In this document: positions 1 to 3,655 of the stretch, piece after piece
How the letters are laid out: each line of letters opens with the position of its first letter
How positions within the stretch are numbered: position 1 is the stretch's first letter
Origin: a virus
Lineage: Duplodnaviria > Heunggongvirae > Uroviricota > Caudoviricetes
Reading direction: 5' to 3' (one strand)
Virus record (IMG/VR): IMGVR_UViG_2690316115_000028
Coordinates: 1 to 3,655 of that record
Length of the DNA stretch: 3,655 nt
Made by a program: the position numbers and the translations under genes
The notes under the pieces: generated by a model
Told to the model about the DNA's origin: nothing
Databases searched by the model: none
The model's input: only the letters and a program-made list of their open reading frames with translations

Positions 1-1074
1 TCATTTGTCGATTTCAATTTTGTCCCATTCCCGTCCACGGCTGTCTCTATACCGCGCCGCCATTGAATCTGATTTATGCCCGAGAAGACGTTGAGCAAAT
101 TTATCGCCAATCTGGTTCCGGTATAGCCTCGCTGACAGGCTACGCAGTTCATGGAATGTTGGCGGGTTTCCATCAAATGAGAGTCCAGATGCATTTCTCG
201 CCTTTGTAAAATACTTTGATACTGTTTTCGGGGAAAGAGGATCGTAATGCTTTGATGCGATTATAGTTTCACTGCTGCTGGCCTCCCTGCATTTCTGTAG
301 TGTATCAGCCAATGAGATATTGAGCGCGTCAATCGTTAGCGTTAGCGGAATGGCGAGTTTAGCCCCTGTTTTACTCTGTTCAATGTGAAGATGGTTGTCG
401 TTTATGTCTGACCATTTCATTCTGCACAAATCGCCGACTCTCTGCCCTGTAACGACGGCCAAATCCATCGCCAGCCTTAGCCAGATAGGGAGAGGTTCGG
501 CTGCATGGTAAATCTCGACATACTCATTAGCTGTCAGCCTTGAGCGCCTTACTTCTGACTTTGCTGTACGGGTTGCTGTTACCGGATTCGTTGCCACATG
601 CCCCTCGGCTATTGCTTCACGAAAAACGTCAACAAGGGTTGACCTGATTAATTTTGCGGAAGCTGCTTTACCTTCTGCTACGTAGGTGTTTAGCATTGCT
701 GCCACTTCTTTCGTTGATATGTCAGTGAGCGGTTTGTCCGGCAATTTTCTTCGGATTGCCCTGATTTTGCTGGCGTAGTCGAGTAGAGTTTTCGGCCTGA
801 TCCCCCTTTCGGTGAGGATTGTTTCATATCGGTCAAGCCACACATGAAGAGTGATTGCGTCACCGCCTTTAATTCTGTCTATTAGTGATTTGCGTCCGCT
901 GTCTGAGAGTAACTCAATATTGGCCTGTATTGCTTCAGTGATTGCTATCCTCCTGTCTCGGCCTAAACCAAACTCTTTACCCGTCCTTGGGTCCCTGTAG
1001 CAGTAATATCCATTGTTTCTTATATAAAGGTTAGGGGGTAAATCCCGGCGCTCATGACTTCGCCTTCTTCCCAT
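1..1074 (-). CDS. int: Tyrosine site-specific integrase, lambda Int family (357 aa)
   Basis: Full-length ORF. The N-terminal ~55 aa (MGRRRSHERRDLPPNLYIRNNGYYCYRDPRTGKEFGLGRDRRIAITEAIQANIEL) and the C-terminal catalytic region (HELRSLSARLY...LLGHKSD...YRD.RGREWDKIEI) match lambda Int as I recall it; the central region is diverged. ATG at 1074..1072 preceded by GAGGA about 6 nt upstream. Start overlaps the 3' end of xis by 23 nt, as in lambda. Confidence 0.95.
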   Translation of the reverse strand: MGRRRSHERRDLPPNLYIRNNGYYCYRDPRTGKEFGLGRDRRIAITEAIQANIELLSDSGRKSLIDRIKGGDAITLHVWLDRYETILTERGIRPKTLLDYASKIRAIRRKLPDKPLTDISTKEVAAMLNTYVAEGKAASAKLIRSTLVDVFREAIAEGHVATNPVTATRTAKSEVRRSRLTANEYVEIYHAAEPLPIWLRLAMDLAVVTGQRVGDLCRMKWSDINDNHLHIEQSKTGAKLAIPLTLTIDALNISLADTLQKCREASSSETIIASKHYDPLSPKTVSKYFTKARNASGLSFDGNPPTFHELRSLSARLYRNQIGDKFAQRLLGHKSDSMAARYRDSRGREWDKIEIDK

Positions 1075-1270
1075 TTCTGATCCTCTTCAAAAGGCTACCT
1101 GTTACTGGTCGATTTAAGTCAACCTTTACCGCTGATTCGTGGAACAGATACTCTCTTCCATCCTTAACCGGAGGAGGGAATATCCTGCATTCGCGCACCC
1201 ATCGACGAACTGTTTCAAGGCTTCTTGGGCGTCGCTGGCGTGCGTTCCACTCCTGAAGTGTCAAGTACAT
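1052..1270 (-). CDS. xis: Excisionase Xis (72 aa)
   Basis: The internal Met of the 85-aa track ORF gives MYLTLQEWNARQRRPRSLETVRRWVRECRIFPPPVKDGREYLFHESAVKVDLNRPVTG.LLKRIRNGKKAKS, near-identical to lambda Xis as recalled. ATG at 1270..1268; TGA stop at 1054..1052 inside int. Confidence 0.9.
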   Translation of the reverse strand: MYLTLQEWNARQRRPRSLETVRRWVRECRIFPPPVKDGREYLFHESAVKVDLNRPVTGSLLKRIRNGKKAKS

Positions 1271-1282
1271 CGCAAAGTCTCC

Positions 1283-1296
1283 GCAATTACACGCAA
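1283..1296 (-). promoter_or_regulatory. cII-type activator box TTGC-N6-TTGC at the expected position of the pI (int) promoter
   Basis: Minus strand reads TTGCGTGTAATTGC, 13-27 nt upstream of the xis ATG. In lambda, pI is cII-activated through TTGC-N6-TTGC flanking the -35 and initiates inside xis. Function not verified. Confidence 0.5.
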
Positions 1297-1318
1297 GAAA
1301 AAGCCGCATTGATGCGGC
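1295..1318 (-). terminator. Intrinsic terminator T1 (minus strand)
   Basis: Perfect 6-bp GC-rich stem GCCGCA/UGCGGC (1303..1308 pairs 1313..1318) with 4-nt loop, followed on the minus-strand RNA by UUUUUCUU. No U-tract on the plus strand. Lies between the 114-aa gene and xis. Confidence 0.55.
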
Positions 1319-1374
1319 GATGGTAGGTCTGGATATCTTGAGAAATGAACAGGCCTCATCGAGTGTGAGGCGGG

Positions 1375-1719
1375 TTAGTCCTTGCGTAGCTCGCTGATTC
1401 TTCTGTAAGTCTCTGGTGCTTTGTTCCCGTACGTCTTCATTTCAGACTTCAACAGAGCAACGAGTGAATCCCATTCGTTGAGGATTCCTTTGAATGCCGG
1501 AACGCGCTTTGCAACCTTGTCGAATGAATCTCTGATTTCTGGAATCTGCTCAACAAGTGCAACGCATCGTCGGAAATCGGCTGCGTCATGTGGAGCACCG
1601 AAGCTATGACCATAGATATTCTTTTTCAGTCCACATGCGATTGAGGCAAGAGTTGCGCTACTGATGCCTACATCGCCAGTCGATTGCCATTTCAAAACCT
1701 TCATAGCCAAATCTGACAT
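1375..1719 (-). CDS. Hypothetical protein, 114 aa, function unknown (candidate accessory/moron gene)
   Basis: Clean ORF co-oriented with the operon. ATG at 1719..1717 with GGAG (1730..1727) 7 nt upstream; TAA stop at 1377..1375. Protein-like composition (MSDLAMKVLKWQSTGDVGISSATLASIACGLKKNIYGHSFGAPHDAADFRRC...). The antisense ORF 1421..1609 is low-complexity. I recognise no family. Confidence 0.75.
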   Translation of the reverse strand: MSDLAMKVLKWQSTGDVGISSATLASIACGLKKNIYGHSFGAPHDAADFRRCVALVEQIPEIRDSFDKVAKRVPAFKGILNEWDSLVALLKSEMKTYGNKAPETYRRISELRKD

Positions 1720-1730
1720 TTCTTGTCTCC

Positions 1731-1757
1731 AATAAAAAAACCGCCATCAGGCGGCTT
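1731..1757 (-). terminator. Intrinsic terminator T2 (minus strand)
   Basis: Stem CCGCC/GGCGG (1741..1745 pairs 1750..1754), extendable by A-U and G-U pairs, loop UGAU, followed on the minus-strand RNA by a U7 run (complement of 1734..1740). Sits between the 55-codon gene and the 114-aa gene. Confidence 0.7.
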
Positions 1758-1914
1758 GGTGTTCTTTCAGTTCTTCAATTCGAATATTGGTTACGTCTGC
1801 ATGTGCTATCTGCGCCCACAGCACCCAGTGGTCATAGCAGTCGCTGATGTTCTCGGCTTCGATAACTCTGTTGAATGGTTCTCCATTCCATTCACCTGTG
1901 ACTCGGAAGTGCAT
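1747..1914 (-). CDS. Small hypothetical protein, 55 aa (resembles the unnamed 55-codon ORF next to xis in lambda)
   Basis: Not in the ORF track (below its length cutoff). My own translation of the minus strand: MHFRVTGEWNGEPFNRVIEAENISDCYDHWVLWAQIAHADVTNIRIEELKEHQAA. ATG at 1914..1912 with GGAG (1925..1922) upstream; TGA stop at 1749..1747 inside the T2 loop. Length matches the lambda 55-codon ORF; identity recalled, not verified. Confidence 0.6.
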   Translation of the reverse strand: MHFRVTGEWNGEPFNRVIEAENISDCYDHWVLWAQIAHADVTNIRIEELKEHQAA

Positions 1915-1922
1915 TTATCATC

Positions 1923-1950
1923 TCCATAAAACAAAACCCGCCGTAGCGAG
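1923..1950 (-). terminator. Candidate weak intrinsic terminator T3 (minus strand)
   Basis: Minus-strand RNA CUCGC-UACG-GCGGG (5-bp stem with one G-U; plus 1937..1950) followed by UUUUGUUUUAU, which runs into the RBS of the 55-codon gene. Short stem, so tentative. Confidence 0.35.
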
Positions 1951-1952
1951 TT

Positions 1953-1982
1953 CAGATAAAAGAAATCCCCGCGAGTGCGAGG
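1953..1982 (-). terminator. Candidate intrinsic terminator T4 (minus strand)
   Basis: Minus-strand RNA CCUCGC-ACUC-GCGGGG (6-bp stem with one G-U; plus 1967..1982) followed by AUUUCUUUUAU. About 50 nt downstream of the stop of the 80-aa gene. Confidence 0.4.
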
Positions 1983-2032
1983 ATTGTTATTCATTGCCGA
2001 TATTCACCTTTATCGCGAACACCTTTACCGGT

Positions 2033-2275
2033 TTATCTCCTTTGCATGGCGCGTAATTTTTTCAGATGGTTCTCCTGCTCTGTTTCAGCCAGAATTTGTC
2101 GGTATTCCTGGTGATCGATCCGTTCAAACAGTTCATTAAAATTGTTTATTTTTACCGACTGTGTTCGCCCATCCATTCTTCTGTACAACACAGTGTTGTT
2201 TATGCAGCGAAGAATTTTTATCGGGTAGCCGGCGCTATCGGTGTATATCTGACCACGTTGAATCAGAGCGAACAT
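2033..2275 (-). CDS. Small hypothetical protein, about 80 aa (98 aa if the TTG at 2329 is used)
   Basis: Track ORF 2033..2329 begins with TTG, and its flanking GGAG abuts that codon with no spacer. The first ATG (2275..2273) has GGGGA 7 nt upstream, giving MFALIQRGQIYTDSAGYPIKILRCINNTVLYRRMDGRTQSVKINNFNELFERIDHQEYRQILAETEQENHLKKLRAMQRR. TAA stop at 2035..2033. Start choice unresolved. Not recognised as lambda Ea8.5 (no Cys/His cluster). Confidence 0.55.
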   Translation of the reverse strand: MFALIQRGQIYTDSAGYPIKILRCINNTVLYRRMDGRTQSVKINNFNELFERIDHQEYRQILAETEQENHLKKLRAMQRR

Positions 2276-2349
2276 TCCTTTATCCCCAGCGGAAAAGCGA
2301 ATACAGAATAAATGCCACCGCGATTGCAACTCCTACAGCGGTGAATGCT

Positions 2350-3087
2350 TCAGGCCAATTCATCATTCACTCCCTGCGGCGGTTCTGGTAGCAGCATCCA
2401 GTACAAGGCGTTCCCTAACCACGATAAAGTGCCGTCGCTCAACTCCACGTATTCCTCTTGTACCTGTCCTGCCATATACTCACCGTGCTTTGAATAAATT
2501 AAAATCCAATCATCTTGAGCGGGCATTCGCTCACTACAGCTTATCCAACCATCCGGCAACTTGTAAGCCGTCGTTACAGGTTCGGCACCATGAAGCATGG
2601 CGGCGATGTTGTTTCTCTTGAGAAAGTTAATACTTTTCAAGGTATCTTCCTCAAGCGTCGAACCGGTGTAGCCATTGGAGCAAGTTTCAGCACGTTTATG
2701 ATGGTACCTTAATGCAGCAATGCATTTTCTTATCCCGTCACGGTATATTTCCTCTTCCTCCTCAAGCTCAGCACTGATTTCGACATCCATATCGTGAAGC
2801 ATTGCTCGCTGCACCTCAGTCAGGGGTACCGGCGCTGGCGGGACGGCGTAGACTTCAATAATCCCATTATCAATAGGCCATTCTCCATCCTTGAGGTAGT
2901 CACTTGTGCCGTCAACTTTCTGTTCTGCAATGTGGAATGCACCTATTGGTTTTGCTTCCAGCGATGCCAGAGCAATTCGTGCCAGTTCTTCCGCTTCTTC
3001 TGCTGGCAGTACAACGTTGCTACCAGGTCCGTATGTTTCGCGCCACTGCTTGATTGTCAGTAGTCGCTCTTTGGTAATAGTGGTCAT
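2350..3087 (-). CDS. Hypothetical phage protein, 245 aa, with a C-terminal region resembling DUF551
   Basis: Track ORF 2350..3249 is 299 aa, but the likely start is the internal ATG at 3087..3085 (MTTITKERLL...), preceded by the strong SD AAAGGAGAG (about 3100..3092) and lying 1 nt after the upstream TGA. The C-terminal segment (DGWISCSERMPAQDDWILIY...WMLLPEPP) resembles the DUF551 family found in enterobacterial prophages, from memory only. Acidic linker ELEEEEE mid-protein. Confidence 0.8.
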   Translation of the reverse strand: MTTITKERLLTIKQWRETYGPGSNVVLPAEEAEELARIALASLEAKPIGAFHIAEQKVDGTSDYLKDGEWPIDNGIIEVYAVPPAPVPLTEVQRAMLHDMDVEISAELEEEEEIYRDGIRKCIAALRYHHKRAETCSNGYTGSTLEEDTLKSINFLKRNNIAAMLHGAEPVTTAYKLPDGWISCSERMPAQDDWILIYSKHGEYMAGQVQEEYVELSDGTLSWLGNALYWMLLPEPPQGVNDELA

Positions 3088-3088
3088 A

Positions 3089-3655
3089 TCACTCTCCTTT
3101 GATGCAAATGCCAGCGGCGCGCTCGGCTTCACTTTGTTCCCAAAACCACTTGTGAAGCGCCATAAGCTTTTCGTCAATCGGTGCATATTTGCGATTAAAG
3201 TAGGCCTGAGCATCTTTCTCAGATTCGTCCGGTAATTCGCCAGGGCCAAACAGTGTGTTATAAATCCATGCTAGTCCGCTCTTAGCGTCGCCAGTTGCCT
3301 GCCATTCGATAATGGCAGCCTGCATGACCAGAATGTTTTTCCCCATTAATAGGTCCAGTTCTTTGAACCGGTTGCGGATGTATGCATTCTCGCTTTGTAA
3401 TTTTGCGTTGCGCTTTTCTGAGGCTTCAAGTAACGCCTGCTTATCGCGTAGCGCTTCTTCCAGTTCAGCAACATGGCATTCACTATCAATAAGGTTGTTC
3501 TCTGCTGCTTCAAGCTCAACACGCAGCTTCCCAACCGTAAGCGCAATCTCCTCGTTCTCCTGGTCGCGGCGTTTGATGTATTGCTGGTTTCTTTCCTGTT
3601 CATCCAGCAGTGCCAGCACGGTAGCCGGGTTAGCCTCTGCTATGAATTCAGCGTT
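3089..3655 (-). CDS. Ead/Ea22-like family protein, 5'-partial (continues beyond the window)
   Basis: Reading frame is open from the window edge (...NAEFIAEANPATV LALLDEQERNQQY...). The track's start at 3619 is a GTG inside the frame. Central heptad-like coiled-coil segment (LRVELEAAENNLIDSECHVAELEEALRDKQALLEASEKRNAKLQSENAYIRNRF) then a C-terminal globular region. Architecture and position (upstream of ea8.5/xis/int) match Ea22-like proteins. TGA stop at 3091..3089. Confidence 0.75.
   Translation of the reverse strand, partial: NAEFIAEANPATVLALLDEQERNQQYIKRRDQENEEIALTVGKLRVELEAAENNLIDSECHVAELEEALRDKQALLEASEKRNAKLQSENAYIRNRFKELDLLMGKNILVMQAAIIEWQATGDAKSGLAWIYNTLFGPGELPDESEKDAQAYFNRKYAPIDEKLMALHKWFWEQSEAERAAGICIKGE

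Follow-up and report, generated by a model that had tools for sequence, protein, structure and literature searches.

The 114-codon open reading frame (ORF) of the window, ORF114, is with high confidence a promoterless, terminator-delimited cassette of a phage early operon that has been swapped at microhomologies and carries a fossil of a P22-type xis gene. The window is the whole stretch of DNA analysed here, positions 1 to 3,655 of virus record IMGVR_UViG_2690316115_000028 (Caudoviricetes). It corresponds to the distal part of a lambdoid prophage's early-left operon, the int and xis genes being of the HK022 type, and all of its genes lie on the minus strand: int (1–1074), xis, ORF114, the 55-codon ORF55, and genes for DUF4222, DUF551 and Ea22-like proteins. 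As to function, we suggest with low confidence that ORF114 encodes a small binding protein, helical in structure and associated with the recombination module. The explanation as a whole, in which a dispensable, promoterless, delayed-early cassette supplies an accessory protein of that module, leaves us with belief and doubt in equal measure.

An extra segment relative to lambda

Alignment of the window with lambda revealed an exact 437-bp extra segment in the window. A sequence-only reading of this DNA had proposed that a gene is interposed here between xis and the 55-codon ORF, recalling that in lambda the two are about 40 bp apart. Both points hold, as lambda has xis and orf55 40 bp apart and no ORF114, and the boundaries of the 437-bp segment fall inside terminators. 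The same arrangement (xis, 40 bp, orf55, without ORF114) is found in HK106 and mEp332. Identity with lambda continues through the hairpin upstream of ORF114 and six T's to position 1735, and resumes at TTTTTCTTGCG, from 1302 downwards. The stem of the upstream terminator (AAGCCGCC/GGCGGTTT at 1757–1738, T-run at 1740–1734, dG -13.2) recurs unchanged in lambda, whose single hairpin is a hybrid of this stem joined to the tail of t'I, the terminator downstream of ORF114. In the window t'I reads GCCGCA-TCAA-TGCGGC at 1318–1303, with TTTTT at 1302–1298 and a dG of -10.5, and its T-run abuts the CII box of pI; that box is invariant in a four-phage alignment, and the indel against lambda has its right-hand edge there. 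Going by the alignment, insertion of an ORF114 unit (ribosome-binding site (RBS), gene and terminator) into the T-run and deletion in lambda between two similar terminators would fit equally well.

Independent cassettes and a remnant of a P22-type xis

Related phages display this site in all three presence/absence states. ORF55 is found without ORF114 in lambda, HK106 and mEp332; ORF114 without ORF55 in g341c, Shiga toxin (Stx) phage 2851 and SPN9CC, where it directly follows the tL4 doublet; and the two together in HK022, 434, mEp213 and the prophage Gally. Searching complete E. coli genomes with 161-bp queries spanning the junctions, we found the lambda-type junction of ORF55 to xis in 1,804 of 5,426, the junction of tL4 to ORF114 (without ORF55) in 697/5,426, and that of ORF55 to ORF114 in 471/5,426. 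The tL4b leader of ORF55 is GGCGGGTTTTGTTTTATGGAGA and the upstream-terminator leader of ORF114 is GGCGGTTTTTTTATTGGAGA; the crossover between ORF55 and ORF114 falls in their common T-run and RBS, TTTTAT(T)GGAGA. Consistent with this, the T-run and GGAGA of the second tL4 hairpin, which form the linker before ORF55 in the window, stand before ORF114 in g341c, 2851 and SPN9CC. We conclude with high confidence that ORF55 and ORF114 are independent gene-plus-terminator cassettes, exchanged at T-tract/GGAGA and GCGG-T-run microhomologies.

Short conserved sequences at gene boundaries reportedly act as recombination points in lambdoid phages, as comparative papers on HK620 and HK97 are said to describe. 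The junctions seen here likewise involve exchange at short conserved intergenic sequences, namely the terminator T-run with the RBS and GCGG(C)TTTTT. Unlike other mosaic junctions, the linkers are predicted intrinsic terminators, one per small gene, and every combination of the two genes is represented at one site.

A trace of an earlier exchange is preserved behind ORF114 in the 48 bp at 1369–1322, whose translation matches residues 6–21 of the SPN9CC Xis at 15 of 16 residues. This stretch has only 16 codons left and no ATG, GTG or TTG start, and is not an intact excisionase or HTH_17 ORF. In SPN9CC itself, the stop codon of the ORF114 homolog and the start of xis are 2 nt apart (TAA-CC-ATG). 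The fossil is common to HK022, 434 and mEp213 and is cut at other points in g341c and 2851, and the homology of the window with mEp213, SPN9CC, g341c and 2851 stops at 1322–1341. The ORF114 segment therefore once stood directly upstream of a P22-type xis-int pair, and the integration module was later replaced. Our scan also flagged a hairpin at 1371–1353, but since it lacks a T-run and falls within the fossil coding sequence, we do not count it as a terminator. The fossil frame also reads free of stops into xis, giving an 85-aa, N-terminally extended xis ORF whose ATG, at 1309, lies inside the t'I hairpin. Comparison with HK022 and lambda, which agree with the 72-aa start at 1270, suggests that this extension is probably unused.

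Terminators and transcription of ORF114

In the region 1000–2400, a terminator scan returned 7 terminator-like sites against 1.2 +/- 1.1 in shuffled sequences, while a sequence scan for promoter-like (sigma-70-like) sites returned 0 against 1.7 expected. Both hairpins flanking ORF114 consist of a GC-rich stem directly followed by a T-run on the transcribed strand, and are predicted to be intrinsic terminators with similar stems. Our analysis thus bears out the sequence-only reading in describing a 114-aa gene with an RBS (GGAG at 1730–1727) bracketed by such terminators (1757–1738 and 1318–1303), in finding no promoter between the upstream terminator and the RBS, a gap of only 7–8 nt, and in expecting expression through antiterminated early-left transcription. 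Having no promoter of its own and three predicted intrinsic terminators ahead of it, ORF114 would thus depend entirely on antiterminated RNA polymerase from pL for its transcription. Its setting fits an early-left (pL) accessory gene, as judged from the gene order of the window, 434, HK022 and Gally: it is on the same strand, between the recombination genes and xis, promoterless and behind terminators. We propose that ORF114 is a delayed-early gene in the distal pL operon of an HK022/434-like lambdoid prophage. Antiterminated polymerase from pL would pass the tL4 doublet and the hairpin at 1757–1738 before reaching it, and a fourth terminator, t'I, would separate it from pI-xis-int.

The same operon and regulatory logic apply to the lambda exo-xis genes (orf55, ea8.5, ea22, orf61, orf63 and orf60a), described as small, non-essential, pL-driven, antitermination-dependent genes between the recombination genes and xis (PMC8614690). 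The ORF55, tL4, pI and xis of lambda are homologous to those of the window, whereas none of the lambda exo-xis proteins is related in sequence to ORF114.

Expression data come from Gally, a relative carrying the gene rather than the prophage studied here. Its gene order is EaA, a hypothetical gene, ORF55, ORF114, xis and int, and its ORF114 (GALLYPH_20) is 98% identical to ours and is the last gene before xis. In published RNA-seq of strain LF82, Gally was "devoid of any moron", with no gene 5-fold above prophage background; the leftward operon was co-induced and no genes were expressed in the lysogen.

Several further observations concern the hairpin between ORF55 and ORF114. The ORF55 stop codon TGA (1749–1747) is within its loop, and the last codons of ORF55 form the 5' arm of its stem. 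In 434 the stem has a mismatch (GGAGG for GGCGG), and neither M60848 nor OL657226 marks the hairpin as a terminator; from these stem sequences, its strength may differ among phages. An Rfam scan gave sub-threshold matches to isrK (18.3 bits) and STnc420 on the minus strand at 1734–1794 (gathering scores 50 and 70). Identity with these Salmonella prophage small RNAs was rejected, the alignment being carried almost wholly by the terminator hairpin and U-run.

A known gene of a large uncharacterised family

The sequence-only reading implied that the gene was new. This did not stand, as phage 434 record M60848 (AAA67902) annotates ORF114, ORF55 and the terminators t'-I and t-L4, and the HK022 counterpart is gp32 (HK022_32 / HK022p30), annotated as "N15 early protein homolog". 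By sequence comparison, the ORF114 locus is thus already known as an annotated ORF of unassigned function. The downstream terminator is named t'-I in M60848 and is annotated as a terminator in OL657226 too; the 434 and HK022 records give the name tL4 to the homologous site, and the first tL4 hairpin is kept in lambda. ORF114 of 434 and gp32 of HK022 are the same gene in the same position (xis, t'I, ORF114, ORF55, tL4), with no substantive difference from ours. Protein identity is 95–99% to the 434, HK022, Gally and EC.P3 proteins and 95–97% to those of 434 and HK022. The P22-like phage g341c, mEp213 and Stx phages carry the gene as well. At least 1,000 contigs encode a protein identical to that of the window, and junction-spanning matches place ORF114 in ~1,100 of the 5,426 complete E. 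coli genomes, about a fifth. Our literature searches found no paper characterising ORF114 and no source that names its product, and the paper on the exo-xis region (PMC8614690) does not treat it.

Several lines of evidence indicate that ORF114 is a real gene: it is under purifying selection (dN/dS of 0.08–0.21 against six relatives), its AlphaFold model is confident (pLDDT 93.6, pTM 0.87, seven helices), and its family is large, with 2,845 cluster representatives in an exhaustive profile search, 646 of them at E <= 1e-10. The protein matches PHROG 1229 over its full length (E = 4.8e-51, residues 1–114 against profile positions 1–113 of 116), a family with no functional annotation, and PHROGs 8038 and 15291 in part. 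Scans of ORF114 against Pfam, NCBIfam and PADLOC gave no match, in line with the earlier view that the family is uncharacterised, and a Pfam scan across 72 diverse members also returned nothing. Sequence searches of the PDB, whether started from the one protein or from the profile, gave noise alone (E >= 0.15), Foldseek of the model against the PDB nothing better than E = 4.7, and a BFVD search only uncharacterised homologs. No likeness in sequence or fold was seen to characterised Ral, Gam, Kil, Abc2 or Lar.

Across the 72 members, which are 29–75% identical to the window protein, residues S20, P43, D45, D48, R51, C52 and W83 are invariant, and W11, G18, S21, L55, P60 and E93 nearly so. These residues gather at the N-terminal ends of helices 2 and 3. 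The idea of a DNA mimic or nucleic-acid binder was discarded, as isoelectric points in the family range over 4.5–10.1 with no consistent charge. Members mostly stand alone; some have unannotated N- or C-terminal extensions and some are tandem duplications. The P0067 sequence shows two copies of the domain, and a duplication in P0225 is suspected from its 244-aa length alone. Apparent E. coli fusions to Ea22, ERF, Kil or dATP/dGTP pyrophosphohydrolase were set aside as mosaic or gene-calling chimeras with neighbouring genes. A domain-fusion search of the long members identified no Pfam partner besides one fusion to Cca, considered below.

Genomic context and proposed function

In lambdoid and P22-like phages, ORF114 shares its operon with exo/bet or erf/abc. 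Among more distant homologs, RdgC is encoded 1–4 genes upstream in PY54, Solent, Providencia PSTCR8lys and Morganella IME1369_02, and one marine contig has, in order, a DUF3799 exonuclease, RecT, RdgC, a small gene and the ORF114 homolog. Two further lineages have the reading frame of a DUF3799 (YqaJ-like) exonuclease overlapping that of the homolog, and in another the exonuclease gene is four genes away. The context of distant members therefore points more to a recombination or DNA-metabolism module than to anti-defence, which is suggestive, not decisive. The homolog of Mannheimia phage 1152AP2 (3444–3909, 33% identity) has annotated rho-independent terminators on both sides and is closely followed by a DUF4224 gene and int, an arrangement that mirrors the layout of the window.

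We postulate that the ORF114 product is a compact protein of seven helices with one invariant polar site (S20/S21, D45, D48, R51, C52), which would bind a protein or a small ligand during early DNA transactions. The gene would then be an accessory of the phage recombination or DNA-end-processing module and not a lysogenic-conversion factor. Several points weigh against this account. The evidence for function is gene neighbourhood only, and proximity is weak evidence because recombination modules are common in phage early regions; moreover, 6 of 10 metagenomic contexts contain no recognisable recombination gene. Lambda recombines well without ORF114 and 434 carries both Gam and ORF114, and the protein is therefore not a required or exclusive partner of any recombination system. 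Most of the invariant residues are at helix N-termini and could be structural caps, not a functional site.

The rival explanations, ranked by likelihood, are an anti-defence or host-takeover factor, an accessory of Xis/Int, a classical moron and a tRNA-related role. An early protein that neutralises host immunity or a host enzyme, unrelated to recombination, is a possibility to which we attach only about a one-in-four chance's worth of belief. It would suit the small, single-domain product with its novel fold, the early-operon position without lysogen expression, and the sporadic presence of the gene among otherwise near-identical phages, as well as the occurrence of the family in virulent and temperate phages of Proteobacteria and Actinobacteria; in Vibrio phage D60 the sole functional annotation in the small-gene cluster is Lar-like restriction alleviation. 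However, the protein resembles no known anti-defence protein or solved structure, and its net charge varies too widely in the family (see above) for a consistent DNA mimic. The invariance of seven residues over very diverse hosts is also easier to reconcile with a conserved target than with a fast-evolving immune one. A cofactor or regulator of Xis/Int, which we regard as improbable, would account for the fact that in lambda-like, P22-like and Mannheimia phages the next gene downstream is xis or a small pre-int gene, for the 2-nt spacing from stop to xis start in SPN9CC, and for the old adjacency recorded by the xis fossil. Against it, homologs occur with no integrase nearby in the virulent-type Solent and Vibrio phages and in the linear-plasmid prophage PY54, ORF114 is paired with at least 4 unrelated int/xis types, and lambda, HK106 and mEp332 use nearly identical xis and int genes without it; its location is no more than the place where the pL operon ends.

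Morons in HK97 and HK022, as Juhala and colleagues are said to have described them in 2000, are extra genes with their own promoter and terminator that are expressed from the prophage. The sequence-only reading saw in ORF114 the classic look of such a gene, which in its classical form serves lysogenic conversion, is expressed autonomously and is of benefit to the host. ORF114 is indeed an extra gene, lying between two that lambda has side by side; its boundaries are sharp, and a terminator of its own follows it. It differs from morons in having no promoter-like site in the short interval between the upstream terminator and its RBS or elsewhere in the region scanned, and in showing no compositional contrast (GC 46.7% and GC at third codon positions 47.0%, against a window GC of 47.6%). 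It differs also in expression: transcriptome-based detection found no moron in Gally, whose copy is not expressed in the lysogen. The classical reading is thus largely refuted and very hard to credit, and ORF114 is better described as a promoterless operon cassette. No more credible is a tRNA-related function, for instance as a partner of tRNA repair. It derives from P0170 (558 aa), in which a CCA-adding enzyme with PolyA_pol head, RNA-binding and HD domains carries the ORF114-family domain at its C-terminus. This is a single sequence from one Logan contig of 1,891 bp, real or a gene-calling artefact; no further such fusion was present among 585 indexed matches or the top 150 representatives, and tRNA genes or enzymes did not recur in the sampled contexts.

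Layout of the window

HK022 is ~96% identical to the window at the nucleotide level across positions 1–2040, and no single phage record spans the whole window. Beyond position 2040 the window is a different mosaic from 434 and HK022. Its DUF4222, DUF551 and Ea22-like genes are genes of the exo-xis region, in a part of the window that is unlike HK022. The coordinates of all features are collected in Table 1.

Table 1. Features of the window, with positions counted from its first nucleotide
Feature	Position	Strand	Remarks
CII-binding box of pI (putative)	1283–1296	-	TTGC-N6-TTGC, assigned by homology to the 434 annotation
xis	1052–1270	-	lambda/HK022 type, 72 aa from ATG at 1270
Downstream terminator t'I (T1 of the sequence-only reading)	1298–1318	-	stem GCCGCA/TGCGGC plus T5
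P22-type xis fossil	1322–1369	-	translates as LTLDEACSFLKISRPT; start-less, non-coding; contains pseudo-hairpin 1371–1353
ORF114	1375–1719	-	345 bp, 114 aa, ATG at 1719; PHROG 1229
ORF114 RBS	1727–1730	-	GGAG, 7 nt ahead of ATG; inside the TTTT(A)T(T)GGAGA microhomology common to the ORF55 leader
Upstream terminator (T2 of the sequence-only reading)	1734–1757	-	stem 1757–1750/1745–1738, loop TGAT, T7
ORF55	1747–1914	-	homolog of lambda lambdap35, PHROG 676; missing in g341c, 2851 and SPN9CC
tL4 second hairpin	1934–1953	-	terminator scan, dG -11.0
tL4 first hairpin	1964–1985	-	AATCCTCGC/GCGGGGATT plus T-rich tail; terminator scan, dG -13.1
DUF4222 protein	2033 to ~2275	-	
DUF551 protein	2350–3087	-	245 aa, resembles P22 EaA
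Ead/Ea22-like protein	3089–3619	-	running towards the window end

Implications

The locus itself is of little weight, the gene and its terminators having been in GenBank since about 1990. The site is nevertheless a clean example of how lambdoid early operons are assembled from promoterless cassettes of RBS, gene and terminator; E. coli genomes commonly contain each of the three cassette combinations, and the swap of an integration module has left a datable xis fossil. The family is another matter, being large and strongly conserved, with a confidently predicted but unmatched fold and no functional annotation in the libraries searched. We tentatively raise the possibility, which we consider less than probable, that it is an unrecognised, widespread phage effector of a new fold, which would either modulate DNA-end processing and recombination of host or phage, by analogy with Gam, Abc or RdgC partners, or inhibit some conserved nuclease or defence of the host. 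If true, this would explain the spread of the family over phages of Proteobacteria and Actinobacteria. With ORF114 present in the model phages 434 and HK022, where genetics is easy, the gene offers a cheap and tractable target for a family of phage 'dark matter'.

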